Shown: positions 967 to 62,104, counted from the stretch's first letter. The stretch is 64,000 bases of DNA from Antedon mediterranea (GCF_964355755.1 NC_092676.1:3573888-3637887); one strand, 5' to 3'. Notes: generated by a model from the sequence alone, not told the origin. Translations and numbers: made by a program.

Positions 967-1353
967 ATGGCTCATCATCATTGCTTGTTGTGCCTGATTG
1001 TATTGTATAGTATATTCTACGACTGTTTTGCACAAATATATCGATTCACAAAACATCCAAAACCGGTTCTTGTTGCTGAAGGAAACACAGCAAGGTTATC
1101 ATGTGCATGGATACCAGAATTGGATGAACGGCATAACTTTCGATGGGTATTCTTCCCTCAGGATGGTGGTCAGTTTCAAGTACTTGAGAGATCAAATTCA
1201 AAATACAATTTAACAAATAACGCAACTTCTTCACATCTTTCCATTTCTAATTTTGCTTCTAGTGACATAGGAAAATACAGGTGTGATATCAGACAAGACA
1301 GAGACACTGTTTCTAAAGACACTGTTTCTAAAGAGACTGTTGTAGTGCTGTGA
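967..1353 (+). pseudogene. Truncated Ig-receptor paralogue (signal peptide + Ig domain 1 only)
   Basis: MAHHHCLL signal peptide, ARLSCAW and DIGKYRC Ig motifs. A 15-bp duplication (gacactgtttctaaa x2) is present, and homology ends at a TGA where paralogues continue into domain 2. Upstream 1-960 is homologous to 31665-32650. Confidence 0.85.
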
Positions 1354-1649
1354 GGTAAATTCCCGATTGATCGTAATCAAAACGGTACTGGGTATGGTCT
1401 ACTAGATTTTCTGCTCCCAACCAGTACATCCATTCATAGAAGCCTTAATGAAGTAAGCCTACCTGGTGGTGGCCATAGAACGGTCCCGAGATAACGACTA
1501 TACTTCGGCTTTAGTCGATAGAAGATTGAATAAATTGTTAGATAGAGATAGAGTATACGATGTTATGATTATTATGTGTAGATATGTGATTTGTTCTTTT
1601 TATTCCAATGATGTTATGTATTTAATAAATTTTTTATATCAATTAATTA

Positions 1650-1690
1650 AACTAGATGGTACGCTCGCTTCGCTCGCGTACCATCTAGGT
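1650..1690 (-). mobile_element. Possible Helitron/Helentron-type terminus (hairpin + CTAG)
   Basis: Perfect 13-bp stem ctagatggtacgc (1652-1664) / gcgtaccatctag (1676-1688) around tcgcttcgctc; the minus strand ends ...CTAGTTT. Confidence 0.4.
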
Positions 1691-2195
1691 CGTGCCCACA
1701 GATGGTTCTCGAATACATAGTAATTTCAGCGTTTAAAAAACTGGCGACTTCAAATGCACATGCAGGACAATAATACATGTTGTTTACAGAAACGAATAAA
1801 TAGACACTGTGATTTATGTACTCAACTAAAATTAGCACCCCGGGAATTACTTCCGAAAAAGAAACTTGTCACAAAATAAGAAACAAACTGAATTTGTGTT
1901 TTGTATGTAACATTTGGGTTGAGGGATGGGGAAGAGGATGGATGCAAAGACGAACAATTTTTAAATATATTCTTTATCGATTTAGTAACGAAATATGAAT
2001 TGTTTTCATGTTTTACAAATAATATACCAGTAAACACAGTAAAACATTGCGATTTAATACTTTGTTGAAACTGTCACCGTCATAGTCGATTGAAATAGTA
2101 CAGTACATGTAACGATACATCACTAATACGACGTTTATATTTTTTTGAAGTTACATGATTACAAACGTTCAGAAGGAACTGTCAGTAATATATTA

Positions 2196-2984
2196 AACAC
2201 CTCTATTCGGGGCAAATCGTAAATTCGCTTTAATCGTCAATAAATAATTATCTAACTCAACTTAATTAGTAGGCCTAATGGTTAATTGTTTCATAGAGCC
2301 AATTATGCTACCCACTACCCAACTTGTATTGAAAATTAAGTTGTTTCCTAACCACCAAAGTTGTTCTGCGTTTAGGGCACGTACTGATCATTCGTACTGT
2401 AGGCCTGCCCTCTACTGGCTTTACAACGCTACTCATGCCAGTGAGGGGAGGGTGGTGGTGTTGGTGGTGGTTTAGCTGCAATAATAAATTTGATTGTACA
2501 TAATAGACGGCGACTGGAAAGGCTAGCTCATTATGCGTTAAAAAAAAGATTCCACAGATTGGAAAAAAGTGTATCGAATTTCTGTTATGGCTGTACAGTA
2601 CTTGTCTTTACGACGCCTGAGGGAATAGACACTTGTGGAACAGAGATAGAACAGAGAACCATTTATCGCAGATCAAAACATTTGTATAAACGTATATTAA
2701 ATCTATAAAAATAGTATTTTTTAAAGAAAATCGGCCTGTCTTCAACATTATGATGCTGTACTCGAGCTGTTCAACCGGTTTTCAGCTATTAAAAACAATT
2801 ATCGTAGGAGGAGATAGGAAAATGCGAAGCATCCTCGCATTATTGTCTGCGGGTATTTTTCAAGTTGGACATCCATTAGACAGTGTATACCACGACCACG
2901 AAACACCCCTATTTGGGGCAAATCGTTGAACCTAAATTCGTTTTAATTGTCAATAACTAATTATCTAACTCAATTTAATTAGTA
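2196..2984 (+). repeat. Two ~80-bp imperfect direct repeats (~2196-2271, ~2901-2984)
   Basis: aaacacc(t/c)ctatt(c/t)ggggcaaatcgt...aattatctaactcaa(c/t)ttaattagta occurs twice. Confidence 0.7.
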
Positions 2985-3423
2985 AACATGGTTACATCAG
3001 ATGGTTAAAATCAGTACCGAAAGTACGAACCAACTTTATATACCATCGAGTAAAAATTCTAGAAATAAACTGCGATTTACCGAATTTTGCCCTTACGTAA
3101 ATTTATATATAGATTATCGTAGATTGCATATTATGCGATGAATATTATTTAATAAATTTTTGATATATTATTATTATTATATTAATAAAAAAGATATTTG
3201 TTAGTATAAATTAAAAAATATAGATATAAGGAAGAAAAGCAAAGAGATTATGGAGCGGCTGTACCAGAATATACAACACTAAGTATTGTAAAGTTAATAT
3301 TATATTAGAAATTTAGGCGATCTTGCCTGCCACGTTTCGATATTCAATATTGAACTTGAACTTCTGAAGGCGCTCGACCTTTGACAAGATTATAAAGATG
3401 AATTTTTTTAAATTCATATTATT

Positions 3424-4103
3424 TTAAGACGTTAGGCCTACATACCGATATTCTGTCGGCGTTGCCAACCACCAAATTACTATCCCAACTCTCTCTCTGT
3501 ACGGAATTGCCCTGCGAAAAGTTGTATCTTGTCTCTCAACAAGAGGCCGTAGTTGTTCAGCAAGTCTATCAAATGTTGCGCGACACATTCGGAAATGTGA
3601 CCGAAATGTTTCATCGCTGTAATGTTCCACATTAGCAGCCCAAAACAGGCGACCATGGGCACGGTTTTGTACCCAGATTCTGCGATCAACAAGGTTCGCT
3701 CCAAGCGTTGCGGCTGCCAAAACTTCGACGACTAGGCCCAGTTGACGTCGGTTTAGGGCTAAACGCCTTCGCCGTCTACTCCGTGAATTTGCTCTCCTTT
3801 TCCTTTGTAGATTCATTAAAAATCTAAAATTGATATATGTATTGAAAACATAACGCTTGATAACTCAAAAGTAATGCAAGTATTACAATTTTAACCGGCT
3901 CCATTGTTAATATTATTCCTGTCGCGCAGACAGGAGTACAGTGTACTATTTTTACAAAATGTTGATTGACAGCACCGGGGTGATGCTGTAGTGTAAATGG
4001 GAACAACCCGAGTTCATCTCGCAGTTTTTTCTGTTAGTGTAAACGAAAATAGCCTCCGAGTTAAACTCGGGTTACTCTCCCAGTTGATAGTGTAAAAGGG
4101 GTA
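3424..4103 (-). mobile_element. PIF/Harbinger transposon 5' part with HARBI1-like transposase N-terminus (ORF 3424-3816)
   Basis: FRSHFRMCRATFDRLAEQLRPLVERQDTTFRRAIPYRERVGIVIWWLAT is typical of Harbinger nucleases. The terminus gatagtgtaaaaggggta (4086-4103) is followed by TTA. Confidence 0.85.
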
Positions 4104-4589
4104 TTAGCCTTAGTAGTTAGCTAGCCTCAGGCAAACGTACATTTAATCTGCGAGTGATCAGTTCATAACACCGGCGATCCCTACTTGTCCCGTTGAACAT
4201 TGCTACAATTTCCTCATTACAACGTATGGTAAGGAGGATTTTAACTTGATCTTGAGTCCAAACATTTGAAGACATAATGATGATTATTCACTGTATTTGC
4301 ATGATAGAGGTAGGCCTAGCAGTAGAGAGAATGGTGTGGATTGTATTCAGGACAGAGAGGTAGTGAGCGTGTGGTGGTGATTTCGCGCGGTTTCATTCTA
4401 AAAACACACAAACATCATGAATTTTGAACACATAAAATACTCAAAAAATATATATACAAGAACAAAATAATGTTAAATACAATATAATTATTATTTTAAG
4501 ATGCAAACATTCAAAATATAGAAACAGGTATTTTTTTCGCACAAACATATAACAAATTTAATGATAGAAGATGACCTTTTCATGTCAAT

Positions 4590-4840
4590 AACCTTTACCA
4601 ACCCGGTGTTGGATCGCAAAAACCGTTTACGCTTTCGTGTCTCCGGTGTCGACTTGACTACACCGGAGAGGCACACCGGAAAACATTCAGCTTCGTTTCA
4701 CCCCGCGGAGAGCACACCGGGGTGGTTCGATTTTCCCATTTACACCAGTCAATAAAAACCACAACACCGGCTTTTAACGGCCCGGTGTACTAACAACTGC
4801 GGGGTAACACCGCTGTTGCGGTGATAGTGTAAAAGGGGTA
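4590..4840. mobile_element. Second Harbinger-family terminus abutting an Ig-receptor 3' end
   Basis: Same terminus gatagtgtaaaaggggta (4823-4840) followed by TAA, with repeated acaccgg subterminal motifs. Confidence 0.7.
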
Positions 4841-4958
4841 TAAGATAAACGTAGAAGGCCTAACGTACGCAGATATAGAGTTTAAAGGCGGTACGTTTCC
4901 AAACCCTGAACCACAGGACTACGGACTTGATTACGCAACCGTGCAGATTACGAAGTAA
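4841..4958 (+). pseudogene. Orphan 3' end of an ITIM-type Ig-receptor tail
   Basis: Encodes NVEGLTYADIEFKGGTFPNPEPQDYGLDYATVQITK*, nearly identical to 59458-59575. Confidence 0.9.
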
Positions 4959-6002: not shown

Positions 6003-7523
6003 ATGGCTCGTCAGCAACATTGGACATATCTGTTTTACAAGTGTTTAATTATATTGAAGAGTATATTCTACTGCTGTTGTGCTCAATCCTATATTTTTAC
6101 AAAAGATCCACAATCAGTTCTCGTTGCAGAAGGACAAACAGCAACGTTATCATGTGCATGGTCACCAGCATTGAATGGAAACCATTATTTTGGATGGTCT
6201 TATTATCGACCTGGTATTAGCATTCAACGAATTGATGGTTTAAATGCAAGATACAATATAATTAATGAAGCAACCTTTTCAAATCTTTCCATTTTCAATG
6301 TTGGCCCTTTTGAAGTAGGAAGATACAGGTGTGATATCTTTGACGATGACGCTTCATACATTCTTTCTGAGCATGCTCTTGTAGTGCTAGGAGAAATATC
6401 GTGCAATCCAGAATACGACAATGGTGAAATAGGAACAACGATGACATGTTCTTACATTTCCTCTTATAATGTTAATGCTATTGATTTATTATTGTATAAG
6501 AATGGAAAAATAATTACATCAGAAGTACAAGATAATGTTTTAGAATCAAGGGCTTTGACTAGCGAACACGATGGAGCTGTATTTACTTGTAAAGCCACCA
6601 CTGGACCAAACAATCAAGTGATAGGAACTTGTGAAACTACTCCGCTAATACTGACTATAGATGCAGAGATTGAACAATCACAGCCAGGTACACTTCAAGT
6701 TGGAGATAGCTTTAACCTTACCTGCTCAGGGAAAGGTAATCCTGATTATTATGAATATGAATGGACGTGGAATGACAAACCTGTAGGATCTTTATCAAGT
6801 GAAAGACAATTTGCAATAGTTAATGTGCTTTTTGTGACAAGTGTATCAAGCGGTGCAAATGGCAAAATAGTTACTTGTACAATTAGTTGTAGTGGTCGTA
6901 ACAGCAGTACAGCGAGATATACAATAAACGTGCTAGAGAACAATTCGATTAGGCCTACAACTACACAATTGCAAACAACACCAGGTACACGTACGCAACA
7001 ACTCATTACAGACCAACTCTCAGCAACTAATATCTCTTCGGATGACGAGCCCCCAACACTAATTGTTGTTATTAGTGTACTTGCAATTCTACTCGTAGTT
7101 TCTGTAATATTAATAATATACACGTATTTGCAAAAAAGAAACGTATCTAGGGACAACATAATTCCTTTAAATCGACCTTCGAATAATATTGGACAATATT
7201 ACGATTATGTTGCGTCTTCAGACACACAGATCACCACGACAGGCAAAGACACATACACGTATGATTATGCCATATATCCGTGTACACGCATCGCAGAGAA
7301 TACAAGTGCTGAATACATTGAAGTAGAAGAGAGTTACCATGAGGGCCCACAAAAACAAGAGCAAAATATGACCGCATTCGAGAACGATGATGTGTCCTTA
7401 CAACCAACGGATATTTGTAGCAAAGAGGCCACGTACGAAAATGGTAAATTGCGTATCAAAGGCATGGCAACTTCTGACAATGTGACAATTAAGTACGAAA
7501 ACATCAAATCATCTACGCGTTAG
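6003..7523 (+). CDS. Single-exon type I membrane IgSF receptor, 3 Ig domains, tail class B
   Basis: 506-aa ORF: signal peptide ending CCCAQ, ATLSCAW/EVGRYRC, TMTCSY/DGAVFTC, FNLTCSGKGNP/WTW/IVTC, S/T stalk, TM (LIVVISVLAILLVVSVILIIY), tail YDYV, YIEV, YEN, IKYENI. Confidence 0.9.
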   Translation: MARQQHWTYLFYKCLIILKSIFYCCCAQSYIFTKDPQSVLVAEGQTATLSCAWSPALNGNHYFGWSYYRPGISIQRIDGLNARYNIINEATFSNLSIFNVGPFEVGRYRCDIFDDDASYILSEHALVVLGEISCNPEYDNGEIGTTMTCSYISSYNVNAIDLLLYKNGKIITSEVQDNVLESRALTSEHDGAVFTCKATTGPNNQVIGTCETTPLILTIDAEIEQSQPGTLQVGDSFNLTCSGKGNPDYYEYEWTWNDKPVGSLSSERQFAIVNVLFVTSVSSGANGKIVTCTISCSGRNSSTARYTINVLENNSIRPTTTQLQTTPGTRTQQLITDQLSATNISSDDEPPTLIVVISVLAILLVVSVILIIYTYLQKRNVSRDNIIPLNRPSNNIGQYYDYVASSDTQITTTGKDTYTYDYAIYPCTRIAENTSAEYIEVEESYHEGPQKQEQNMTAFENDDVSLQPTDICSKEATYENGKLRIKGMATSDNVTIKYENIKSSTR

Positions 7524-8712: not shown

Positions 8713-9437
8713 TATATAAAGCTGCGATTGTATACGCCATTAGATTTCTATATAAATATAATTTAAATATTAAACTTTAAGCAAGAACTTATATATAGTG
8801 ATCGATATTTACACGTTGCAAATTAGTAATTTTGTAAAAATGTATTTAATATATTTCGTATCAATAATATAAATATTTCTATTTTATAGTTTTGCTTTAA
8901 GGCTATAATTTTTTACTGTATATTTATACATTTTTGTATATTAATAGGCATGTGTTTTGTAACTTTTAAAGGTTACTTTATTATTACTTGTATTAATTTT
9001 TAATGTAACCGAGTAAATTATGTAATTTATTGTTTTATGACATACAATACAGGAAATAAATTAAATTTGAAAAACAATTTTACTACAATAATTTTAGACT
9101 AGTTCAGACTTATGTTTTTATTTTACAGAGAATAAATAAATAGTATCAGATATCACAAATGTGTGAAGAAATACATTAAAAATATTATTTTATTCTCTCA
9201 GCTTGAGTGTACTACTTACAGTACGCTCATGTAAATATATATTTAATTGAATATGTATAAGTAATTGTTTCTGTAATTGATTATTATAAGAGAGCAGACA
9301 AATTAAACTTAATTTAAAGTTATTTTTTTCCAAATGTTATTGTACTTGTTTGTTGATTAAGGAACAAATGAATGGAAATGGTACCAGTTGAGATCAACGT
9401 TAACGAGAATAAGAAAGAAAGTTGTAACCAAAAAAAA

Positions 9438-9700
9438 AATGAATATGACTGTGTAAAATCAGCAGACAATCAAAACGATAAAATGACTGAAACAGACAGT
9501 GAAAATGAGTATGATTATGTGGAAACATCAAACATAGGCGCCATAGTAAAAGAAGGCACTGCAGAATATATTGAGGGTGTTGATGACAACACTGATGCTG
9601 ATTCCTTGACTGCCCTACTATAAACAGAAACTAATAGGGCTACTGTGGCTGAGTACAATGATGCTTCAATACCACTAAACTAATTTCAATAAATACTAGA
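9438..9700 (+). pseudogene. Orphan cytoplasmic-tail fragment of a class-G receptor
   Basis: NEYDCVKSADNQN...SENEYDYVETSNIGAIVKEGTAEYIE matches the end of 50946-52631; no upstream Ig or TM coding sequence. Confidence 0.85.
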
Positions 9701-10459: not shown

Positions 10460-10645
10460 AAACTCTGTGAATCAATTTGCTTTGATTGTCCTCAGGAGTA
10501 CGATCCTCACTCCTGAGGACGATCAAAGCATATTGATCGAAACGTCGAAAAACTCAACAGTTCTTTTCAGAACTAATATACGTGGTGTACCGAAAAATTT
10601 ATATCAACATTTGATTTCGCCATGCAAACCTTCAAACAATACAAT
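10460..10645 (+). mobile_element. Penelope-like element remnant with minimal hammerhead motif
   Basis: CTGAGGA-c-GATCAA agcata TTGATC-GAAA-CGTC at 10513-10546, preceded by an inverted repeat (gattgtcctcaggagt...actcctgaggacgatc). Absent from the paralogous flank near 30920. Confidence 0.55.
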
Positions 10646-10728
10646 GCATTAAGATATAAGAAGTTTTATAACTCGTGGACAACAATATCTAAATGCAAAC
10701 TAAAAATAAATCCTAAGAACGAATTTAT

Positions 10729-12376
10729 TTATATCACTGATGTTCCAAAATATGTATATACACAAGTTACAAATCTAATATATAATTTTATTTGGAACAA
10801 TAAAAGGGAAAAGATAAAAAGAAAAACTCTAATTGGTGATGTTGAGATGGGAGGCATTAAAATGCCTGATTTTACTCTTCATGTTAACGCACTCATGTGT
10901 GGCTGGTTAAAAAGAATTATGAATGATGATGGTGCTAAATGGAAAAATATTCCAATGTATTATATTAAAAAAATATGTGATGTTAATGTTTTACTTAATA
11001 TGTCATGTTATAACATTATTGATGTTAATTCTGATAAAATTCCACTGTTTTACAAAAAATATGATAAAAGCCTACATAAATTATAACAGAATCTTTAAAA
11101 AAAACCCTGAAACTTATAACGATATAATGAATGAGCAACTGTGGGGAAACCACTACGTTAAACTAAAAAAAAATCGCTTTTCTACAGGCATTGGATTGAC
11201 AGTGGCATTATCAGTATTAAAGACATTGTTAATAAGAACACTTTTTTAACATCAAACGAAATACTGGTGAAACTACAATGTAAAACAAACTGGTTAAATG
11301 AGTATTTGTGCATTATTAAGGCAATACCAATTCAATGGAAACGTATTATTAAGGAGGTAGATATTTTCAATTGTGATGATAATGATGAATTAGTTGGCAC
11401 CAAGTATGAGATTAATACTACCAAACTAATATACTCATGGTTTGTGAAAGAATATTTCATTATTCCAATGTCACAACTAAAATGGGAAGAGTACTTCAAT
11501 GATAACAACATTGATTGGAAAACTTCTTGGTTACGGAAAGTATGTAAAATGAAAGATAAGAAACTAGCACAATTCAATTATAAGATGTTACATAGAATAC
11601 TGCCTACCAACAAACGGCTGTATCAGTGGAAAGTTAAGGAAACACAAACGTGTGACAAATGTGGAGAAATTGAAAATGAAAATCATTTGTTTTTTAGTTG
11701 TAGATTTATTCAGAAATATTGGAGGAAAATGCTTAGTATCTTTGTAAGTTTAAATCACAATAATATATCATTTAAACAATTAATACTAGGAACGGGAGAT
11801 AAGCTAATAGATTATATTTACACTTTTGCAGCATTTACTATTTATAGAATAAAAATGTTATCTGCACTAAATAAGCCAGTGGGTAAATCTTTATGGAATT
11901 CATTTAAAAGCAATATGTTATATAACATTGAATGTGAAACATATAACAATAAAGAAACAAGTATAGAAAAATGGGTAGGTTTAGGAAATAAGATTATGAT
12001 AATATAATTTCTAATTTGATACGATTAACCGAAACAGAATTACAGTGATAGGGGTTACTGGTAGTACTGAGCTATTATTGTTTTTTTTTATCATGTATAT
12101 AAATATATTGTATAATCCGGGTTGTAAAATGAAAACAAACAAATGAAAATGTGTGAGCTATTTTAAAACGGGATAGATGATAATGATGATCCTGTCAAGT
12201 GTATAACAAAATATAAGAAAATTAATGAAAAAAGGAGTAATACAGAATTCATATATGTAAAAATGTTACTTATGAACTTTAACGACATTTACAAGTTAAA
12301 TAATACGATTTTATGTAATATGAGATAATATGAATGTGACTAAAAGTGGTGTTTGCGCCACAAAAGAGAAAAAAAA
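10729..12376 (+). mobile_element. 5'-truncated L1/Tx1-type LINE (frameshifted ORF2 C-terminus with zinc finger)
   Basis: FIWNNKREKIKRKTL..GGIKMPDF and FNYKMLHRILPTNKRL..CDKCGEIENENHLFFSC; A-rich tail; 14-bp TSD aagaacgaatttat at 10715-10728 and 12377-12390. Confidence 0.9.
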
Positions 12377-13333: not shown

Positions 13334-14803
13334 ATGGCTCATCATCATTGCTTGTTGTTTTTGATTGTATTGTATAGTATATTTTACGACTGTTTTGCTC
13401 GAATTTATATTTTCACAGAAGATCCAAAATTGGTTCTTATTGCAAAAGGAAACACAGCAAGGCTATCGTGTGCATGGACACCAGAATTGAATGAACGGCA
13501 TACCTTTCAATGGTCATTATTCCCTCAGAATGGTGGTGAGCCTCAATCAATTAGAATGTCAAATTCAAAATACAATCTAACAAATGACGCAACATCTTCG
13601 AATCTTTCCATTTCCAATGTTGATTTCCATAACGTGGGAATATACAGGTGTGATATCACCGGAATAAATGAATACAGTTTTTCTAATGAGGCTTCTGTAG
13701 TGATAGGAGAAATAACGTGCAATCCAGAGAATGATAATGGTGAAATAGGAACAACAATGACATGTTCTTATCCTCCTTCTTATCCTTCAAATGATATTGA
13801 TTTACGATGGTATAAAAACGGAAATATAGTAATATCAGACACACAAGTCAAACACGTTTTAGAATCAAGAGCTTTGACTGCTGAAGACGATGGAGCTGTA
13901 TTTACTTGTAAAGCTTCAATCGGACCAAAACGTCAAGTGATCGGAACTTGTGAGACTACTCCGCTAGTATTGACTATAGATACAGAGATTGAACAATCAC
14001 CACTAGGTCAACTTCAGGTTGGTGATAGCTTTAATTTTACCTGCTCAGGGAAAGGAAATCCTGATTACTATGATTATAAATGGACGTGGAATGACAAACC
14101 AGTAGGATCGTCGCCAAATAAAAGACGATTTGCAATAGGTAATGTGCTTACTGCGATGAGTGTACCAAGCAGTGCTAATGGCAAAAACGCTACTTGTACC
14201 ATTAGTCGTAGTGGTCGCAACAGCAGTACAGCGAGATATACAATAAACGTGCTAGAGAACATTTGGAGTAGGCCTAAAACTACACGATTGCAAACAACAC
14301 CAGATAGACGTACGCAACAACTCATTACAGACCAAATCTCAGCAACTAATATCTCATCGGGTGACGAGTCCCCAACACTAATGGTTGTTATTAGTGTACT
14401 TGCAATTTCATTTGTAATTGCATTAATATTAATAATATACATGCATTTACAAAAGAGGAACTTAGCTAGGGACAACACAATTCCTTCAAAACGACCGTCG
14501 ACTAATATTGGGCACAATTACGATTACATTACGTCATCAGACACACACGTGACCACGGCAGTCAATGACATAGATAATAAATACGATTATGCCGTATATC
14601 CGTGCACACGAAATGAGAAAAACGTCACTGATGAATATATTGAGGTAATCAATTTTTCCCAAGATGACCCACCAAAACCAGAAAGTAATATCGCGGCTGA
14701 GTACGCTAACGTTGCGTTGCAACCAACAGATATTTGCAGCGAAGAGCCAAAGTACGAAAATAATAAACTACGTGTTAAACGCTACAAGCATGACAACGTC
14801 TGA
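13334..14803 (+). CDS. Single-exon IgSF receptor, tail class A
   Basis: Uninterrupted ORF with the same SP-3xIg-stalk-TM architecture; tail YDYI, YIEV, YANV, YEN. Confidence 0.9.
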   Translation: MAHHHCLLFLIVLYSIFYDCFARIYIFTEDPKLVLIAKGNTARLSCAWTPELNERHTFQWSLFPQNGGEPQSIRMSNSKYNLTNDATSSNLSISNVDFHNVGIYRCDITGINEYSFSNEASVVIGEITCNPENDNGEIGTTMTCSYPPSYPSNDIDLRWYKNGNIVISDTQVKHVLESRALTAEDDGAVFTCKASIGPKRQVIGTCETTPLVLTIDTEIEQSPLGQLQVGDSFNFTCSGKGNPDYYDYKWTWNDKPVGSSPNKRRFAIGNVLTAMSVPSSANGKNATCTISRSGRNSSTARYTINVLENIWSRPKTTRLQTTPDRRTQQLITDQISATNISSGDESPTLMVVISVLAISFVIALILIIYMHLQKRNLARDNTIPSKRPSTNIGHNYDYITSSDTHVTTAVNDIDNKYDYAVYPCTRNEKNVTDEYIEVINFSQDDPPKPESNIAAEYANVALQPTDICSEEPKYENNKLRVKRYKHDNV

Positions 14804-22559: not shown

Positions 22560-22714
22560 AGCTCTGTCTACACTATCAAACTAGTTTGACGAAAAAGGTG
22601 TGATGTGCCCAAATATGGTAGTGATATTCCAAAATATGGTAGTGGTATATCATGTCCATATATGGGAACATCACATTTTGTTGTCACATGAAGTTTGGTA
22701 GTGTAGACAAAGCT
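22560..22714. mobile_element. Harbinger-type MITE
   Basis: TIRs agctctgtctacactatcaaact / agtttggtagtgtagacaaagct with TTA TSD. Confidence 0.8.
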
Positions 22715-23550: not shown

Positions 23551-23700
23551 AGCACTGTCCACACTATCTAACTTTATGTAACAAGTTATTGCCCATAAAC
23601 GGACATGATGATGTCACATCACTACCATATTTGGGCATACCACTACCATGGGCACATCACACTTTTGTTGTCAAACTAGTTTGATAGTGTAGACAGAGCT
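23551..23700. mobile_element. Same MITE family, inverted copy
   Basis: agcactgtccacactatc...gatagtgtagacagagct followed by TAA. Confidence 0.8.
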
Positions 23701-45021: not shown

Positions 45022-45148
45022 AGCTCTGTCTACACTAGTTTGACAAAAAAGGTGTGATATTCCCAAATATGGTAGTGGTATATCATGTCCATATATGGGC
45101 CCTTCACATTTTTTTTGTCACATAACATTTGATATTGTAAACAAAGCT
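45022..45148. mobile_element. Harbinger-type MITE (duplicate of 22560)
   Basis: Same termini and flanks as 22560-22714. Confidence 0.75.
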
Positions 45149-46010
45149 TTACTGTTTAAAAAAAATGACCCACATTTTTCATTTATTTGAAATTCATATA
45201 CAATTTAGATTTCAAAGATTTTTTTGTTATCTTTTGTGGTTCACCACCACATTTATTCATTCAATGTTTCATTAGGGCCTACACAATTTGTTACCATTAT
45301 TTTCTGTTTTTCCTCATTAATATCATAATTTTAACCTTTAGTATCATCATTAATAAACATTCATTTGTTATTTTGTTTTCTGAATTACTAAACATTAATA
45401 TACAGAGTATTTACTTCTTAACATTCTTTTTTTTGCTAAATCTTCTATTTACAAAACCAATTGTATATTAATTAAATACTTAGATTTCAAAGATAAAAAC
45501 ACACAAAGTAACGCAAAAGGTTCAAGAATTTTTTTTAGCTTGTGGTTCGTCAATATCTATACGATTGCACTGCGGTAATGTACCGGTACTGCAATGGTAA
45601 CAAGTTAAAACCAAACCAACTTCTCTTTCTCGATACTGGAGTAAAACTACAATTTATAACGCCTTCGATTTAAATTCCAAAAGGTAAAACAATGTTGTTT
45701 TTGCTTTAGATTTTCTATCGTGGTTCATCAATTGCACGGTAATGTACCGGTATTACTGGTAATAAGTTAAAACCAAACCAATTTCTCTTTCTCCATACTG
45801 ATAGTAAACTCTAATTGAAAGACTAAAACTAACTCCTTCGAGGAAGCAACGGCAATGGAAATTAAAGGGCGACAAATTTTACTTAATTCGTTTTTTATGA
45901 CATTAAATGGTCGCACAGACACTTCTGTTCATCTATTCATAGCAAAAAACTATTCAAAACAAACAAATTACGAAAACAGTAAGCCCTAATAAGGAAACAA
46001 GAGCATATAA

Positions 46011-46160
46011 AGCCCTGTCCACACTATGTAACTTTATGTAAAAAGTTATTGCCCATAAACGGACATGATGATGTCACATCACTACCATATTTGGGCATAC
46101 CACTACCATGGGCACATCACACTTTTGTTGTCAAACTAGTTCGATAGTGTAGACAGAGCT
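46011..46160. mobile_element. Harbinger-type MITE (duplicate of 23551)
   Basis: TAA|agccctgtccacacta...tagtgtagacagagct|TAA. Confidence 0.8.
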
Positions 46161-46409
46161 TAATGCTGGTTGGACCAAAAATAGATCGGAAATGAAAAAT
46201 CGGAACATAAAGGCTTGCTTCTAAATGTTCTCTATGTCTTGTCGTCACTTGGAAGGTAAACATATTATTATGTACACTACTCTCCCAGGCTAGGTCACTG
46301 CGTATATTGTTACAGTATTTCTATCTATGTTCAGTATTATATACTTTCTTATTTACATACAACCTGTCCTATTGGTATATAAGTACTCTAGGCGTTGTTT
46401 TCTGTTCTT

Positions 46410-46442
46410 CTGATGATGAGAATTGTTTCTCGAAACATGTCA
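46410..46442 (+). ncRNA. Minimal hammerhead motif (duplicate of 23948)
   Basis: Identical ctgatgatgagaattgtttctcgaaacatgtca. Confidence 0.55.
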
Positions 46443-50945: not shown

Positions 50946-52631
50946 ATGGCTCATCATCAATATTGTACATTGCTGTTGTACAAGTACCTGATTATATTGT
51001 ATAGTGTATTTCACTGCTGTTGTGCACAATCTTATACTTTTACAAAACATCCACAACCGGTTCTCGTTGCTGAAGGACAAACAGCAACGATAGCGTGTGA
51101 ATGGACACCTGAATTGAATGAAAACCATGATATTTCATGGAGATACCAACCTGTTCTTAGAACGGGTCAATTAATTACAAAATCAACATCAAAATACACT
51201 TTCACAAAAGGTGCAACATTTTCAAGGCTTTCCATTTTAAATGTTGATTCTTATGATGTAGGAACATGCTTGTGTCGTATCTCCGAAGGTGATGGTGTAT
51301 ACAGTTCTTCTAAAACTACTTATGTAGCGCTAGGAGTATTAACGTGTAGTCCAGAATATGATAATGGTGAAATAGGAACAACGATGACATGTTCTTATAC
51401 TTCATCTTATTCTGTATATATTGTTAATTTACTATGGTATAAAGACAGAAATGAAATTACTTCAGCAGCACAACGAAATGATATCAAAGAATCAAGGGCT
51501 TTGACTGATGAAGACGATGGAGCTGTGTTTACTTGTAAAGCCACAATTGGATCTGAAGAGATAGGAACTTGTGAAACTACTCCTCTAATATTGAACATAG
51601 ATGCAGATATTAAACAATCACCGCCAGGTCCACTTGAGGTTGGTGACAGCTTTAACCTTACCTGCTCAAGGAAAGGTAATCCTGAGTATTATGAGTATGA
51701 ATGGACGTGGAATGGCAAACCTGTAGAATCGTCACCAAATGAAAGGCTATTTTTAATAGGTAATGTGCTTACTGTGATGAGAGTATCAAGCAGAGACAAT
51801 GGAAAAATAGTTACTTGTACTATTAGTCGTGATGGTCGTGACAGCAGTGTAGCGAGTTATACAATAAACGTTTCAAACACAACACAAGGTAGGTCTACTG
51901 TTACAGACCTATTATCACCAAACAATGTCACGTACGACGTGCCCAAAACATTGATTATTGTCATTGGTGTACTTTCAACAGTTATTGTGATTTTGATAAC
52001 AGCCATTGTAATTTACTTTTTAAACAAAAGGCGTAGGAAACAGAAAGACAAAAAGACAAAACACGAAAGTGTACAACGGAAAGAACCAGAACAAGACATT
52101 ATAAATTCTAAAAAAACACACGTAGGTAATGATCCTCTGCGTGGAAAATGTATAATCCCTGTATATGATGAACCTGTAAAGTCAGATACACATGGAAACT
52201 TGGAGATTGTTTACGAAGACCCTGACGTGCCGACACACGACCAATTAACAGAAAAGGATAAATTTGATTATTTTGCATCAGAAGAAATGACAGTTGAAAA
52301 AGAAGGCAAAAACGAGTACGACTATGTGGCAACAACAGACACCCACAGTGCTGATTTGACAATTAAATCAGACATAAACCATACCTATGATAATGTGGTT
52401 TCAGCAGACATCCACAGCACAGAAAATGAATATGACGATGTAAAATCAGCAGACGAACAAAACAATGAAACATACAGTGAAAATGAGTATGATTATGTAG
52501 AAACATCAGGCATAGGCGCCACAGAAAAAGAAGGCTCTGCAGAATACATTGAACTTGTTGATGACAACGCCGATGTCGACTGTCACATCAAGAGGAAGCC
52601 ACCAACAACTAATATGCCTGCTGCATCCTAG
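50946..52631 (+). CDS. Single-exon IgSF receptor, short stalk, acidic tail class G
   Basis: 561-aa ORF; tail YDEP, YEDP, YDYV x2, YDNV, YDDV, YIEL. Confidence 0.9.
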   Translation: MAHHQYCTLLLYKYLIILYSVFHCCCAQSYTFTKHPQPVLVAEGQTATIACEWTPELNENHDISWRYQPVLRTGQLITKSTSKYTFTKGATFSRLSILNVDSYDVGTCLCRISEGDGVYSSSKTTYVALGVLTCSPEYDNGEIGTTMTCSYTSSYSVYIVNLLWYKDRNEITSAAQRNDIKESRALTDEDDGAVFTCKATIGSEEIGTCETTPLILNIDADIKQSPPGPLEVGDSFNLTCSRKGNPEYYEYEWTWNGKPVESSPNERLFLIGNVLTVMRVSSRDNGKIVTCTISRDGRDSSVASYTINVSNTTQGRSTVTDLLSPNNVTYDVPKTLIIVIGVLSTVIVILITAIVIYFLNKRRRKQKDKKTKHESVQRKEPEQDIINSKKTHVGNDPLRGKCIIPVYDEPVKSDTHGNLEIVYEDPDVPTHDQLTEKDKFDYFASEEMTVEKEGKNEYDYVATTDTHSADLTIKSDINHTYDNVVSADIHSTENEYDDVKSADEQNNETYSENEYDYVETSGIGATEKEGSAEYIELVDDNADVDCHIKRKPPTTNMPAAS

Positions 52632-53372: not shown

Positions 53373-56067
53373 TATATACGTTGATATCGTTGAATTATTA
53401 GCATAAATTTTGTTTAAGGAAGTAAATTAAAAAATATTATATTAGAAATAATCAACTCTGAGATGAACATTAACCAGAAAAGGGATGGGTAGGAAGTATT
53501 AACAAATGATTAACAAGTATTCAAATCGTACAGAAACGAGGACAGATTAAAGTTCATCAATAACATATCTTAATTTGGCATGAAATAACCAACAATAAAA
53601 TATCAATATATGCAAGTACACGTGATCGTCCATGATTTTTCCATGATGTTTCTATATAAAACTACGATTTTATACGTCATTAGATTTCTATATAAATATG
53701 ATAATTTAAATATTATGCAAGAACTTATATATTGATCGACATTTACACGTTGAAAATTAGTAGTTTTGTGAATATTTATTTAATATATTTCGTATCATTT
53801 ATATAAATATTCATATTTATATTTTTGCTTTAAGGCTATCATGTTTTTGCTACAATAAGTTTAGACTAGTTCAGACTAATGTTTTTCTTACCAGAATAAA
53901 TAAATAGTATAAGATATTACAAATGTGAGAAGGAATACGTTTAAAATGGTAACGTACCGTAATGTAAATATATAGTATCTTATTTCATAATGGATAAAAT
54001 TAAAAATTTAATTTTATTCTCTCAGCTTGAGTGTAGGCCTACTACTCACAGTACGGTCATGTAAATATAGTATCTTATTTTATACTGGATAACAAAAATA
54101 TATTTAATTGAATATGTAATTAATTGTTGTTGTAATCGATTATTATTAAATATATTATAAAGAGCAATCAAATTAAACTTCGTTTTTTCAAATGCTATTG
54201 TACTTGTTTGTCGATTAAGGAACCAATGGATGAAAAGAGCACCAGTTGAGATAAACGTTAACGAGAATAAGAAAGTTGTAACAGAAAAGTGACTAGGAAG
54301 GCTTTAAGAATGTATGCAAAGCGAGAAATATAATGTCAAAAGGTCATAGCTTGGTTCCTTCAAACACAAAATGCATTTTCTTTTACGAAATAACGCCAAA
54401 CACAGCAAGGAAACGTTTCATTAAGACATCCTTGTAAACATTGCACTGTATATAGTTCTTAATACATTTAGAACATTTCCGAAATAACTGTCCCTGAATG
54501 GAACTTGTTTAAAAGATATCTACACTAGAGTAAAAACATTATGTGGTTCATTTTAGTTGTTGTGCAGTTGGGCTCTCTTGATTATACTTTACATTTCTCA
54601 TTAGTTTTTTTTTCATATAGAAATGAATGATAATTATCTATAGTAATTACACTCCATGCACGGGAATTACGAATCTACCGAAAATTAGCAGGCATTTGAA
54701 GATCAGAAGTGTTCTGAACCTAGGCCTAGGGTCTAATATGCAGTACTATATATATATAAGAAGTTTTCTCGTGGAAAACAATATCTAAATGCAAATAGAC
54801 TGAAAAGTAAATAATAAATGATAAAAATAAAAACGAATTTATCAAATATATTATAACATGAATAATCTAATGAACAGAAGAAAAACAAATAAAATACTAA
54901 CTAAACATATGGACGAAAAATAAATGAAAAGAAATATTTCTAATGGGAAAATGCATGATGTATGTAAGAAAGTTAAAATTAATTTTTCAAATCTAATATT
55001 TTGGTTATATGTAGTGTTCAAAGTAAGTATATTAACGGAAGCCCAAACAGTTTTTAACAAGTATATAGTTATGATTTTTATAAATATAATTCTTGATATA
55101 ATAATTACTACAGTACATGTTATTCACTTTCCCGCATGGCTATTTTTTATCAGCTGTTGTTTGTTTAAAAAACAATTTTTAAACAATTTGCCATTTAATT
55201 GTAACATAACAATAAATCAAAATTGGATGGAGGTCATTCCAATACCATTGTACGGTACTGAACAAATGAATAAAACACTGTCAATTTGTTTTGAACGTCC
55301 CACAGTCATGTCCAAACGAAGGTGCGCGTAACGAACTAGGACGAATTCCGATTAATTACTATAAAATATTGAGAATGATCAAGTATTGGATAAAAATAAA
55401 TAAAATGGAACTTAATAGTAGATTAAAAAAATATGCTACCAAACACGAACATTAATCAGTGCACACTACTAACAAATAAACTATTTAAATGAAAGATGAC
55501 GTCACCTAGTTGTGCGTGAGCACCACCAAAGAGGCTATTAATGACGCAAACCTGTACGAACATAAATCAGTGCACACTACTAACAAAAAAAAAAGTAAAA
55601 TGCTTTTCTTTTAAATCGTATAATAACATAATGCAGAACGAACACCGTAATCTGAAAATAGAAATCAGTGATAAAAAGAATAAAATTGTTCGTAACTTAA
55701 TGCAAATGTATTAACGGAGAGGATGCGGAAACAGGTAAATAAGTAAGCTGTGCCTTGTTAAAACAATTAATGCGTTTCTGGTGTATATTAAAATATTTAC
55801 GTAAGAAGGAAGATCAAAATAAACACACTTTAGTCAAAAAATCCATCTATCATTGTATAAAAACCACTATCCCCACAGAACAATTTCCTGAATATCAACA
55901 AATTCAAACGATTCAATTTAATCTAGAAATCAAATCCTTTTTTCAACAAACCTTCTTTCCAAGGCTTCTTTTTAATATTGTCTAACAATGTTTAGTGTAG
56001 GAAAGGAAACAATAATAAGAGCAATACAAACACAAAATAAGGATGTTTTACGAAGTGATTGGCTAAA

Positions 56068-56248
56068 AGGCCAATTTACACAGACAAGTGGTAACGGTAC
56101 TATAAATATATATAATCTATGTTATTTCTTATAACCCTTTACACACAACGCTCAGTGGACGAGCGGTTTCCGCTCAGGATAGATACAGACTCTATGTGTC
56201 TACGCGGTTTTCCGCTTACCGTTACCGCTCGTCTGTGTAAATTGGCCT
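56068..56248. mobile_element. Harbinger-type MITE
   Basis: Perfect 18-bp TIR aggccaatttacacagac / gtctgtgtaaattggcct followed by TAA. Confidence 0.75.
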
Positions 56249-57844
56249 TAATGTTTCAAAACAGGTAAAGGACCTATTTTTCGTTGATATTTCATTTTAT
56301 TTATTCATGGTCGAACACAGTAAATACATACATGAAACTATTTTTGTTTGTTCAAAGTTAAAAATTCACATTTAATACAAAAATGATGTTAAAATATACA
56401 ATATTGAATAACAAAACGATTTTATTGTTTTCTTTATAGATTATGTAGACCTGATTTATTGTTATTAAAAGAGAGCAAACAAATTTAACTTTTAATAAAG
56501 TGGATTTTTCAAATGTATGTCGACAAATTGAAACATTTATTTATTAAAGCAACTGAGATCAACAGTAACGACAATAACAAAGGAAAAGTGGTGTAAGATG
56601 GTTCTCTCTAAAACCTCGAATATACCTCATTAGATTTGTATATAGATATAGTATAGATATTCAACTATAAGCAAGAACTTAACTATTGTTGTTACTAACG
56701 TTACAAGTTTGTAATTTGTGAATTAATGCACTTAATAAATACTATCAGGTATTAAACATTATTTAAGGAAACAATAACATTAAATTATAACCGAGCAACG
56801 CGACAAGAATAACACAGGAATAAGGAAGGCAGTAAGTTTAACGATTGAACAATGTATTGATTTATCAAGATGTCCGGTATCATGTTTTGTTTTTACTGAA
56901 CAAAATAATGCCAGTAAATTAACTAATATATCAACATATTGGTTAAGGAAACGAATTTTAATAAAAGTATGTACCCTAAAATATAATGTATACAAACTTG
57001 CATTGTCTACAAAGTTTAATGGTTCACCCTCAACACTGAACTATGTTGTTTTACAAATGCTTGATTACAATTAAATATACACTACACATATACTGAATAT
57101 CCTGGTATTATAGATGGAGTGGTAAACAATTTATAAATTCAGAAACAAAGTAAACATAAATCTATGTATATGTTTCCATCTAATTGTAGCCTTACGTTAA
57201 TCTAGTCAAACTAAGTGTTCAATGCTTACAAAACAAAGGAGGGGCCAATGCGGGGTTGGGGGTTACACATTTACTGTCATTACACCTAGAAGACAGACAT
57301 TTAATCAGAAATTGTATATTTTCATAAAAAGAACAATATCTTTCTACATATATTTAAATCAATAGTATGTTCAAATTACTGTATTTGACAATGCAGTGTT
57401 AATGTTCAGAATTGTTTAATTCTTATTCTTGTCAGCATTTATCAGGTATTCCTGCCGTGTGTGGCAGCAGATAGCAACTTGCATAAAAGAAACAGGAATG
57501 ATGAAAAGTTTTAGTTCTAAGTTACTCGATAGGGGGCGGTATGCATTACTAGTTTTACCTATAGAATGAAATATGTTAAAATAACTTTATACAGGTTACG
57601 TAGTTGATGATACTATCAATTTAGCAGGAGTCCGCTACAATACAGTACACAGTAATCAGAACGACTGAGTGTTACAGAGTATTACTTGTACCAAGGTGTG
57701 TGAACGTCAACAGCAACTATACAATATTAAGGAATACAGTATCGTTAAATTTGGTATACAATTCTGGACATTTTTTTTCCGTATTATCTTGAATTTGATA
57801 AGTAAGTAAATCGATCCCGGAACTTAACAGTCGCAGTGTTTATA

Positions 57845-59575
57845 ATGGCTCATCATCAATGTTGTAAATTGCTGTTGTACAAGTGCCTGATTACATTGTA
57901 TAGTGTATTTCACTGCTGTTGTGCTCAATCCTATACTTTTACAAAACAACCTCAACCTGTTCTTGTTCGACAACGACAAACAGCAACGCTATCGTGTGAA
58001 TGGACACCTGAATTAAATGAAAACCATGATGTTGTATGGTCATTTTATTATCCTGAAGGTGGATTGGGTAAATCAATTGAACGTTCAACGTCAAAATACA
58101 TTTTAAAAAAAAGTGCAACATCTTCAAATCTTTCCATTTTGAATGTTGATTCTAAAGATGTAGGACGATACAAGTGTGATATCTCTGAAGGTGATGGTGT
58201 ATACAGTTCTTCTAAAACTACTTATGTAGTGATAGGAGAGTTAACGTGCAGTCCAGAATATGATAATGGTCACATAGGAACAATGATGTCATGTTCTTAT
58301 ACTACTTCTTATTCTCCATATGCTATTGATTTACAATGGTATAATGTAGAGAATAAAATTACTTTAGCAGCACAACAAAATGGTATCAAAGAATCAAGAG
58401 CTTTGACTGCTGAAGACGATGGAGCTGTATTTACTTGTAAAGCCACAATTAAATCTGAAAAGATAGGAAGTTGTGAGACTACTCCGCTAATATTGAATAT
58501 AGATGCGGAGATTGAACAATCTCCGCCAGGTACACTTCAGGTTGGTGATAGCTTTACCCTTACCTGCTCAGGGAAAGGTAATCCTGAGTATTATAATTAT
58601 ACATGGACGTGGAGTGGCAAACCTGTAGGATCGTCATCAAGTGAAAGACGATTTGCAATAGAGAGTGTGCTTACTGTGAAGGAGGTAACAAGCAAAAACA
58701 ATGGCAAAATAGTTACTTGTACCATTAGTCGTGATGGTCGTGACATCAGTACAGTGAGCTATACAATAAGTGTTGCAGAAAATACGCAAAGTACAACTGC
58801 ACGTTCACGCACAACACAAGGTAGGTCTACTGTTACAGACCTACTATCAGCAACAACATTATCATCAACCAAACTATCAGCCAACAATGTCACGCACGAC
58901 GAGCCCCAAACATTGATTATTGTCATTGGCGTGGTTGCAACAGTTATTGTGATTTTGACAACAGCAATTGTAATTTATATTTTACATAAGAGGCGCAAGA
59001 AACAGGATGACAAAAAGACAAAACCTGAAAGTGTATCATTGAAAGAACCAATGTATAGTAACACTGATCAAAATATTAACAGTTCTGAAAAATCACGCAT
59101 ACAAAATGGCACTCGGAGTGAAAAGTTGATAACAGATTTTACAGTATATGATGAGCCTACGATTTCAAGTTCAAATACTCAGTTGGAGACTATGTACGCA
59201 GAACCTGATAGGTTAGTAGCTGGTCACGATGCTAGGTATGACACGCCACGGAACGCTATAAGTCTTGATAATATCGATTCAGCGAATACTGATGAAGCGA
59301 GTGATGCTAAGCCAAGAAAAACAAAAAGCAGAGAAAGTATAGATGCAATGTATGCGAAACCAAACAAGTCTCGCAGTACAGAAAGTATTGATGATCTGTA
59401 TGCTAAGCCCAACAAACCGACTGCAAGAACGCCAGAGATTACCCGTGAAGACCCTACTAAGAAAAACGTAGAAGGCCTAACGTACGCAGATATAGAGTTT
59501 AAAGGCGGTACGTTTCCAAACCCTGAACCACAGGACTACGGACTTGATTACGCAACTGTACAGATAATGAAGTAA
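57845..59575 (+). CDS. Single-exon IgSF receptor with two C-terminal ITIM-like motifs
   Basis: Uninterrupted ORF; tail YDEP, YAEP, YDTP, YAKP x2, LTYADI, LDYATV. Confidence 0.92.
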   Translation: MAHHQCCKLLLYKCLITLYSVFHCCCAQSYTFTKQPQPVLVRQRQTATLSCEWTPELNENHDVVWSFYYPEGGLGKSIERSTSKYILKKSATSSNLSILNVDSKDVGRYKCDISEGDGVYSSSKTTYVVIGELTCSPEYDNGHIGTMMSCSYTTSYSPYAIDLQWYNVENKITLAAQQNGIKESRALTAEDDGAVFTCKATIKSEKIGSCETTPLILNIDAEIEQSPPGTLQVGDSFTLTCSGKGNPEYYNYTWTWSGKPVGSSSSERRFAIESVLTVKEVTSKNNGKIVTCTISRDGRDISTVSYTISVAENTQSTTARSRTTQGRSTVTDLLSATTLSSTKLSANNVTHDEPQTLIIVIGVVATVIVILTTAIVIYILHKRRKKQDDKKTKPESVSLKEPMYSNTDQNINSSEKSRIQNGTRSEKLITDFTVYDEPTISSSNTQLETMYAEPDRLVAGHDARYDTPRNAISLDNIDSANTDEASDAKPRKTKSRESIDAMYAKPNKSRSTESIDDLYAKPNKPTARTPEITREDPTKKNVEGLTYADIEFKGGTFPNPEPQDYGLDYATVQIMK

Positions 59576-60621
59576 ATATTTTCCCGCAACATTTACCAGT
59601 ACGTTTATTGTTACATTTATCATTACGAATTAACCTTTGACATGTGACGTAACCGCATCGTTCAATATTGCTTGTACTGTATATACAAAGCTATTTTAAT
59701 GCAATGTGTATTATTATAGGCCTAACAAGTAACAGTAAAACGAATTTCTATCGTAATGTTATACGTCATACGCATCTCAACAACGATCATGAAGGAATTT
59801 GTTGAAATTACTGGGATGCTAACATTTTATTTTATTAGAAACAGTATAATTCTAAAGATTTTCTGAAATATCAGATTTTAACCAAATGGCAAGTGAAGCG
59901 TTTTGACAAATCATGGACACGTGTCCCGCAAAAAAAAAATACAACTAATATTGGAAAACTCTCTCCATAATTTCAAGTTTAACTTTATCTACGGAGGCCT
60001 AGCTCAACACGGATGTTCTTTGCTGCAGCCGTGCTATAGAAAGGACAGCAGTTGTGTACGCAGTAGCAGTAAACAGACTTACAATAACATAAAAAGAGAA
60101 GGACAGGAAAGCCCCAAAGTTTTAATACAAGTTACACTCTAGGGGGCAGTATATCCTGCTACTGGTTTTACCTGACAGTCGGTAATCTGTGACAATAACT
60201 TGAAACCGGATATCTAGTTATATTGCATAACGAGCCTGACGTTCAAAAACAGTGATTTGATACAGTACACATAAATCAGATCGAGTGAGTGTTTAAACTA
60301 GTACCATTTCTATCAAAGTTGGTTATTTCTTTTTAGACCGTAGCATATTACAATACACAGTGATTAGACACAGTTGAATCATAATCGAGAAGGTGCTTAA
60401 ACTGGATACAACTTCTATCATAACAAATGTGTGGCAACATCAACTAACAATGTAATGTATACAGTTTTACATTGTATTAAGTATCTTTAAATCATCGGAA
60501 TCTAGTATTTCTCAACGTTTTTATTCCGTACCAACAATCTCTATTTTGATAAGGAAATAATTTACACCAATCTATAGCAATATTTGGAACTCAACCATCG
60601 GAAGAAAATACACAGTTCGTA

Positions 60622-62104
60622 ATGGCTCGTCAGCAACATTGTACATTGCTAATTATATTGTATAGTATATTTCACTGCTGTTTTGGACTAACCTATTTGT
60701 TCACAGATCCACAATCGGTTCTCGTTACAGAAGGACAAACAGCAACTCTATTGTGTGTTTGGAAACCAGAATTGTTCGAACAGCATAACTTTGAATGGGT
60801 ATTATTCCCTCAGGATGACGGTGAATCTCAATCAATTAGAATGTCAAATTCAAAATACAATTTAATAAATAACGCAACATCTTCATATCTTTCCATTTCC
60901 AATGTTGATTCTGATGACGCGGGAAACTACAGGTGTGATATCATCGGAATGAATGAATTCAGTTATTCTGATCAGGCTGCCGTAGTGATAGGAGAAATAA
61001 TGTGCAATCCAGAATATGATAAAAGTGAGATAGGAACAAAGCTGAAATGTTCTTATACTTCTTCTTATCCTTTAAATGATATTTATTTACGATGGTATAA
61101 AGACGGAAATATAGTAATATCAGACACACAAGACAAACACGTTTTAGAATCAAGAGCTTTGACTGCTGAAGACGATGGAGCTGTATTTACTTGTAAAGCC
61201 ACAATTGGATCTCAAGTGATAGGAACTTGTGAAACTACTCCTCTAGTATTGACTATAGATGCAGAGATTGAACAATCACCACCAGGTCCACTTCAGGTTG
61301 GAGATAGCTTTAATCTTACCTGCTCAGGGAAAGGTAACCCCGATTATTATGAATATGAATGGACGTGGAATGGCAACCCCGTACGATCGTCACCAAATGA
61401 AAGTCGATTTTCAATAGGTAACGTGTTTATTGTGAAGGATGTATCAAGCAATGCCAATGGCAACATAATTACTTGTACCATTAGTCGTAGTGGTCGTAAC
61501 AGCAGTACAGCGAGGTATAAAATAAACGTTCTAAAAGAATATATCGAGTAGGCCTACAACACCAGGTAGACGTACGCAACAAGTCGTTACTGACAAACTC
61601 TCAGCAACTAATATCTCATCGGGTGACGAGCCCCCAACACTAATGGTTGTTATTAGTGTACTTGCAATTTTACTCGTACTTTTAGTAATAACAATAATAT
61701 ACACGTATTTGCAAAAAAGAAACGTATCTAGGGACAACATAATTCCTTTAAATAGACCATCGAATAATATTGGACACAATTACGATTATGTTGCGTCTTC
61801 AGACACACAGATCACCACGACAGGCAATGACACATACACGTATGATTATGCCATATATCCGTGTACACGTATCGCAGAGAACATTAGTGCTGAATACATT
61901 GAAGTAGAAGAGAGTTTCCATGATGGCCCACAAAAACCAGAACGAAATATGACCACATTCGAGAACGATGATGTGTCCTTACAAGCAACGGATATTTGCA
62001 GCAAAGAGGCCACGTACGAAAATGGTAAATTGCGTATCAAAGGCATAGCAACTTCTGACAAGGTGACAATTAAGTACGAAAATATTAAAACATCTACGCG
62101 TTAG
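60622..62104 (+). pseudogene. IgSF receptor, tail class B, +1 frameshift just after Ig3 (or secreted 309-aa form)
   Basis: ctaaaagaatatatcgagtagg vs ctagagaacatttcgagtagg at ~61535; TM and tail lie in the next frame (61643-62104). Confidence 0.8.

Follow-up and report, generated by a model that had tools for sequence, protein, structure and literature searches.

A tandem array of diversified single-ORF three-Ig receptors in Antedon mediterranea, most likely an expansion of an ambulacrarian KirrelL-like family

A 64,000-nucleotide (nt) stretch of the Antedon mediterranea genome (GCF_964355755.1 NC_092676.1:3573888-3637887; this whole stretch is hereafter the window) carries a tandem array of genes for receptors with immunoglobulin (Ig) domains, raising the question of where such an array came from and what its copies might recognise. 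Evaluating it computationally, we found 13 paralogues (g01 to g13) with signs of positive selection on the V domain and with V domains reshuffled among different tyrosine-rich tails. They most likely represent a lineage-specific expansion of an ambulacrarian KirrelL-like three-Ig family, and on balance we lean towards a germline-variable system that would recognise a changing foreign ligand, with one inhibitory member and others that would recruit adaptors.

The 13 paralogues, delimited by a six-frame scan and tblastn of the window, all lie on the plus strand and together span 967-62104, with starts spaced 2.8-9.6 kb apart and each intact copy forming a single uninterrupted open reading frame (ORF) of 489-576 amino acids (aa). 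Seven are unbroken at full length (g02, g03, g04, g08, g10, g11, g12) and six are damaged, comprising two with a clipped tail and with ectodomain and transmembrane segment (TM) in frame (g06, g07), three with a frameshift N-terminal to the TM (g05, g09, g13) and one that retains only the first Ig domain, Ig1 (g01). A sequence-only reading of this DNA had described 13 co-oriented, intronless paralogues in intact, frameshifted and fragmentary states; the count, orientation and states were confirmed, and "intronless" stands for the coding region, which consists of single ORFs, with untranslated exons still possible. Three remnants (4842-4957, 9435-9602 and 27152-27421) add to that description. 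The features are, in order:

967-1353, plus strand: g01, signal peptide and Ig1 (V) only; stop placed precisely where the G strand ends, unrelated sequence thereafter
4842-4957, plus strand: orphan tail remnant, the final 38 codons of a tail with a tandem immunoreceptor tyrosine-based inhibition motif (ITIM); 95% identical to g12
6003-7523, plus strand: g02, intact, 506 aa; A-type tail (YDY, EYIEV, YEN)
9435-9602, plus strand: orphan remnant of an acidic, g11-type tail (aa identity 73-75%); this block recurs at the window end, 63486-64000 (91% nt)
13334-14803, plus strand: g03, intact, 489 aa; A-type tail
16743-18299, plus strand: g04, intact, 518 aa; mosaic, its Ig2 going with g05/g09 and its tail and 3' flank 95-98% identical to g08
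19712-21435, plus strand: g05, +2 frameshift at ~20420 (start of Ig3); B-type tail, ITIM end deleted at ~21425
24629-26152, plus strand: g06, 507 aa; ectodomain 96-99% identical to g10; a 241-nt deletion clips the tail
27152-27421, plus strand: decayed leader/Ig1 remnant containing stops
28045-29773, plus strand: g07, ORF of 499 aa ending at 29541; ectodomain and TM undamaged, frameshift in the A-type tail at ~29480; Ig1 in the g11/g12 clade
32656-34128, plus strand: g08, intact, 490 aa, A-type tail; against g03, Ig3 100% and Ig1 66% identical
42210-44056, plus strand: g09, broken twice, by loss of 5 nt at the Ig2/Ig3 linker (42865) and again in the stalk (43199); B-type tandem-ITIM tail
47092-48807, plus strand: g10, intact, 571 aa; long stalk; A-type tail
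50946-52631, plus strand: g11, 561 aa; hybrid tail with a B-type juxtamembrane part and five YDx[VIP], no ITIM
57845-59575, plus strand: g12, intact, 576 aa; tandem ITIM (LTYADI, LDYATV) and five YxxP; the only in-frame copy with a tandem ITIM
60622-62104, plus strand: g13, +1 frameshift at ~61533, just past Ig3; g03/g08-clade Ig1 in a g02-like block; A-type tail

Orphan tail and leader remnants, together with repeats running up to both ends of the window, indicate that the array extends beyond it. Nor is it an assembly artefact, since among the public-run contigs (4 of the 9 listed runs were compared) those of X1 include exact pieces of the window, and those of X5 and X6 show that a second organism has related copies. 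A further run, X8, covers intergenic DNA and was treated as DNA; it leaves parts of g12 Ig1 and of g13 Ig1-Ig2 uncovered, a gap to which we attach no weight. False haplotype duplication was rejected, as the duplicated blocks differ at 30-50% of Ig1 residues and are mosaic. The first base of the g11 stop differs in every X1, X5 and X6 contig there (paralogous contigs being possible at the thresholds used), and the extra base of g13 is absent from one X5 contig, again possibly paralogous, with no X1 contig across the site; both features may be private to this haplotype or errors. Contig depth over g10 in X1 (914-1146 versus ~135-160 for unique pieces, depth not being copy number) hints at additional near-identical g10-like copies.

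Intact copies encode a signal peptide, three Ig domains, a stalk rich in serine and threonine (S/T), a TM and a tyrosine-rich tail. The sequence-only reading had proposed this same layout, and it is now borne out by Pfam matches of the Ig domains (V-set, I-set, Ig_2, Ig_3), by an AlphaFold model with three beta-sandwiches (mean predicted local distance difference test 86.5) and by stalk composition (S+T 29-41% in the 6 copies measured). Ig1 superposes on antibody V domains (Z ~14, root-mean-square deviation ~2 over 100 residues), while Ig2 holds four cysteines in all 12 window copies that possess it. Stalk length runs from 24 to 123 aa across copies; in-frame tandem repeats at 29022-29278, 48066-48328, 21256-21413 and 43705-43863 lengthen the stalk (72, 87 and 102 nt) and an LY[ST][KR]P tail motif (72 nt). 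Of the four truncations ahead of the TM, three coincide with the end of a domain (g01, g09, g13; rough post hoc P = 0.016), and truncated copies could conceivably yield soluble one-, two- and three-domain forms. We also considered a protocadherin-like layout of variable exons with shared tails and rejected it, as the ORFs come with tails and stops of their own and the 6 ORFs scanned showed no consensus donor; splicing of some copies onto the orphan tails is possible.

Diversity among the copies is graded along the molecule, such that mean identity climbs from 53% in Ig1 to 64% in Ig2 and 70% in Ig3. A codon site test (M1a/M2a, our own implementation) on 12 sequences favoured M2a for Ig1 (twice the log-likelihood difference, 2dL, 23.8), placing 13% of 103 codons at omega 3.1, and favoured no positive class for Ig2 (p=0.063) or Ig3 (p=0.41). 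The Ig1 signal persisted with segment-specific trees (2dL 20.6 and 23.8) and was reached by 0/85 null simulations on mosaic trees (maximum 11.7), of which 5/85 passed the nominal 5% cut-off. The six best selected sites sit on C, CC', F and G, and Ig1 variation as a whole is concentrated at outward C, F and G positions and in the CC' and FG loops, with outward GFC positions averaging 2.14 bits versus 1.32 on BED (p=0.005; faces assigned by strand alternation). These results bear on the possibility that the array is mostly neutral, an intronless adhesion gene amplified by unequal crossing-over under relaxed constraint, with conversion tracts and decaying copies. Such a history, which we consider quite unlikely, would accommodate the 6/13 damaged copies and several remnants, the transposon-like inserts between genes and a mean ratio of nonsynonymous to synonymous substitution (dN/dS) of 0.67-0.85 across Ig domains; it sits poorly with an omega>1 class that the neutral mosaic null did not reproduce, nearly invariant core Ig residues (0.39 bits), purifying selection at 33-58% of sites in the site test, coding Ig1 whose similarity falls below that of the upstream non-coding flank in 4/6 duplicated pairs, and related copies in a second organism.

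The cytoplasmic tails fall into three types. In A-type tails (8 copies) the tyrosines of YDY, EY[IL]E and YEN are conserved and an ITIM pair is lacking, whereas B-type tails (g05, g09, g12 and the 4842 remnant) carry 4-5 YxxP motifs followed by two terminal ITIMs 22 residues apart, an end that g05 has lost; g11 forms a hybrid class with 5 YDx[VIP] motifs against 0.22 expected. Two ITIMs within the last 40 aa arose in 0.12% of g12 tail shuffles. Among the 9 copies in frame through the TM, the strict ITIM pair occurs in one (g12). The YDxV motifs of nephrin recruit Nck (PMC11247170).

Comparing modules across copies revealed extensive mosaicism. In the pair g02/g13, Ig1 is 70-75% alike versus 87-97% for the upstream non-coding flank, with g13 combining a V domain of the g03/g08 type and a block of the g02 type, while g04 and g08 have only their 3' part in common. 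For the 8 A-type copies, the tail and Ig1 trees mutually reject one another (approximately unbiased test, p-AU 3.5e-6 and 3.6e-13), and a single Ig1 clade, g07/g11/g12 (100% bootstrap), bears all three tail types. We infer that gene conversion or unequal crossing-over lies behind these mosaics. Positive selection on the V domain, V/tail reshuffling and the mix of tail types thus uphold the earlier view of a diversifying, lineage-specific receptor family that evolves by birth and death.

Where did this family come from? Word-indexed protein searches found nothing close (no match for g12 in one, 6 generic Ig matches in another, 4 fish CD22-like or Ig matches in a third), atlas searches returned generic Ig clusters only, viral and metagenome scans no relative, and PDB sequence and fold searches generic multi-Ig proteins. 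An exhaustive profile search gave 2204 matches, of which 150 were considered; ranking by best single stretch among 159 proteins placed six relatives at the top with 54-76 bits (next 47), and among the matches listed these six are all echinoderm or hemichordate, with whole-ectodomain identities of 22-28%. They comprise two proteins of Saccoglossus (LOC144350272, LOC144350859) and one each of Ptychodera (XP_070550306), Glandiceps (XP_078001388), Anneissia (LOC117120841) and Acanthaster (LOC110989882, P0159). The last agrees with Aplc_Kirrel2L throughout the 400 letters compared, both being 582 aa (PMC8903837 Figure 6-source data 3), and shows 24-28% identity to the window copies (profile probability 98.7, E 4e-16). 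The earlier statement that no named family could be recognised therefore no longer stands, the nearest relatives being ambulacrarian three-Ig proteins that include a published one. The Anneissia protein (P0058, 1123 aa) contains two complete units resembling signal peptide/Ig-Ig-Ig/TM/tail and is probably a pair of tandem genes fused by annotation.

KirrelL, Kirrel2L, Hypp1164 and IgTM are Ig-domain proteins of echinoderm primary mesenchyme cells (PMC8903837, Khor and Ettensohn 2022), and their sequences, read over about 400 letters each, share a V-C2-I layout and a four-cysteine Ig2. The latter as a family feature is drawn from our alignment rather than from that paper; it is present in 6/7 relative units, while two of the four cysteines are absent in arachnid KIRREL. 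The window copies match these proteins in a colinear V-C2-I ectodomain with a four-cysteine Ig2, a stalk and one TM, and match kirrelL in an intronless coding region. What sets them apart is their number, their mosaicism, the positive selection and the presence of three types of tail, whereas S. purpuratus has one copy each of kirrelL and hypp_1164, and the KirrelL sequence is well conserved (PMC8903837). On that contrast the window copies are probably not one-to-one orthologues of KirrelL or Kirrel2L, given 13 copies at 24-28% identity to Kirrel2L. The hemichordate and crinoid relatives share the three-domain core, and the tail of one Saccoglossus protein (P0090) has the NVEGLxYA motif too, though each of the four hemichordate proteins carries one more Ig domain at its N terminus. 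In our tree, set against nephrin/Kirre, PTK7 and CD22-like proteins, the window copies form one clade (100/100), which groups with the ambulacrarian proteins at 89/93 and with the echinoderm ones at 76/76; alternative groupings with fish CD22-like proteins (p-AU 0.06) or arthropod Kirre/nephrin (p-AU 0.08) were not rejected. Because Kirrel2L and one Saccoglossus protein (P0159 and P0090) likewise end in ITIM pairs, the B tail may have come first and the A tail have been acquired afterwards. The g12/P0090 score was reached by 7/1000 tail shuffles, in one of 28 comparisons, and the g12/P0159 score by 129/1000, and three other low shuffle counts came from alignments without shared motifs; on these results, tail likeness to the relatives is claimed at the motif level only.

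This ancestry makes a cell-identity or fusion code a serious rival, and the main one, albeit one we hold to be doubtful. It would retain an ancestral KirrelL-type contact role in which V faces decide adhesion or fusion by isoform-specific binding, serving self/non-self discrimination or the sorting of skeletogenic or mesenchymal cells on the model of Alr1/Alr2 in Hydractinia. The V face that varies in the window copies is the one used in V-domain adhesion, and YDxV-Nck-actin signalling would suit contact and fusion. KirrelL, of the nearest characterised family, is needed for fusion of skeletogenic mesenchyme cells and is intronless in all echinoderms examined (PMC8903837), and Alr genes likewise show domain-1-specific divergence and shuffling (bioRxiv 2022.03.04.482883). 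Set against this are the single-copy state of kirrelL and hypp_1164 and the conservation of KirrelL noted above, nulls too frequent (6/13 copies damaged) to be predicted by a developmental code, and upstream Alx1 and Ets motif counts at background level. Descent from a fusion-related family, together with positive selection on an extracellular face, is also compatible with a role in gamete or reproductive recognition, where sexual conflict or species isolation would drive the diversity; nothing specific to this was found, ITIM-type tails and tail-class shuffling better suit signalling receptors, and we regard it as very unlikely. An unlikely but consequential further scenario is that in an echinoderm lineage the conserved, intronless KirrelL/Kirrel2L family of skeleton-cell fusion became a polymorphic self/non-self receptor complex, combining single-exon V/tail swaps, inhibitory and actin-recruiting tails and soluble decoys; if true, the array would be a molecular candidate for echinoderm allorecognition, controlling which cells may fuse.

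The reading we favour, germline-variable recognition of a changing foreign ligand, would work as follows. Tandem duplication and gene conversion would join a rapidly changing V domain to tyrosine tails of different types; the ligand, presumably microbial or otherwise antagonistic, would bind the GFC face and signal either through the predicted inhibitory ITIM pair (g12, g09), to which an SHP-type phosphatase would bind, or through predicted adaptor-docking motifs (YDxV, YxxP and YxN in g11 and the A-type tails) that would engage Nck/Src/Grb2-type adaptors and actin signalling, while copies cut at domain ends would supply soluble decoys. Such a role would probably be played on immune or barrier cells.

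A number of observations weigh against this. On the signalling side, no immunoreceptor tyrosine-based activation motif (ITAM) occurs in the 11/11 tails scanned and no charged residue in 12/12 TMs, and because of these two absences an activating arm would have to be carried by short motifs, of which YxN and single YDx in most A tails occur at chance level; moreover only 1/4 of the B-type tails belongs to an intact gene. Because no ITIM copy has a near-identical ectodomain twin, with Ig1 identity of 67-70% within g07/g11/g12, the strict paired-receptor pattern is absent within the window. The g06/g10 pair reverses the usual divergence, its ectodomains being 98-99.5% alike. As to selection, dropping gap-adjacent columns weakens the Ig1 signal to p=0.012-0.029, dN exceeds dS in only 21/66 Ig1 pairs, and the V-domain faces come from strand alternation and not from coordinates. 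GATA, Ets and Runx motifs are not enriched upstream of the copies, and the characterised relatives are skeletogenic and not immune (PMC8903837).

Variable Ig receptor clusters with tyrosine-motif tails are already known from cnidarians, tunicates and vertebrates, and we compared the array with each of the closest systems. Hydractinia Alr is alike in its clustered single-pass Ig receptors, pseudogenes, domain-1 divergence, shuffling and minority of ITIM tails, while its one exon per domain, many Cys/Trp-poor cores, Fn3-like fold in most members and 14 members with ITAMs have no counterpart here (bioRxiv 10.1101/2022.03.04.482883); lacking per-domain exons, an Fn3-like spacer, ITAMs and unusual cores, the window copies were rejected as Alr members. 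Botryllus FcoR resembles the array in extracellular/intracellular tree conflict and and in ITIMs and core YxxI/L/V motifs, but its genes are split into many exons, encode Sushi domains and hemITAMs and are paired with an FF gene (PMC12582321); a Pfam scan of the window found no Sushi domain and reading of the tails no [ED][ED][ED]xYxxL, so FcoR membership was likewise rejected. In paired Siglecs (Siglec-5/14, -11/16) gene conversion is typical and null alleles are frequent, and ITIM members occur alongside non-ITIM ones (PMC6288428); here, unlike there, we found no ectodomain twins with opposing tails, no charged TM for a DAP12-type partner and no conserved Arg, so the likeness is one of analogy only. 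Siglec membership was rejected in that the column after the F-strand Cys is Arg in 1/11 copies. This test takes the essential Siglec V-domain Arg to lie on the F strand. Strict paired receptors were rejected within the window on the Ig1 identities, ITAM and TM results given above. Membership of NITR, LILR or KIR is defined by sequence homology and a multi-exon vertebrate cluster organisation, and none of these was among the named matches (20 of 150 listed representatives checked by name).

No such array is described for echinoderms or hemichordates in the open-access literature searched, and we regard the window array as a new form of a known receptor type, not a one-to-one orthologue of any described member. 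Its origin is traceable, in that it links a variable receptor system to a named developmental family and so connects single-copy genes of fusion and adhesion with an array of receptors that reshuffle. Genes with a single exon make for easy amplification and expression, and six selected positions on the V face, together with the three types of tail, offer direct handles on ligand and signalling. Echinoderms reject allografts, and we know of no accepted molecular determinant of this; the array would be a candidate.

Upstream of the copies, TGATAA occurs in 8/13 versus a 10% background, but the sites share ancestry and 800-nt counts match background. A TGATAAGGAAGT-like element, with GATA beside an Ets core, lies ~20-150 nt upstream of the starts, whole or half in most copies, which again share ancestry. 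A 40-nt tandem repeat stands just 3' of g04 (18414-19152, 18.5 copies) and of g08 (34243-34671, 10.5 copies), within the converted tract that the two share.

Scans of the window for tRNA and Rfam families gave no match, while several elements of transposon character lie between the genes. Between g01 and the ITIM remnant (1354-4840) there is a minus-strand ORF, 3427-3864, without a significant Pfam match, which we take to be Harbinger-like. Decayed fragments of long interspersed nuclear elements occupy 10577-12004 on the plus strand (zf-RVT match at 11162-12004) and 38614-39117 on the minus strand (RTE-like by eye, weak Pfam match). A 3.7-kb element with 30-nt terminal inverted repeats, TTAA-bounded, spans 34788-38484 and is presumably piggyBac-like. 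A further TTAA-flanked element of ~1.15 kb with terminal inverted repeats (22557-23703 and 45019-46163) sits in the duplicated blocks upstream of g06 and g10, and summed contig depth, very high at the second copy, suggests a non-autonomous transposon present in large numbers. Lastly, a short element at 56067-56249 has 33-nt inverted arms and high contig depth.

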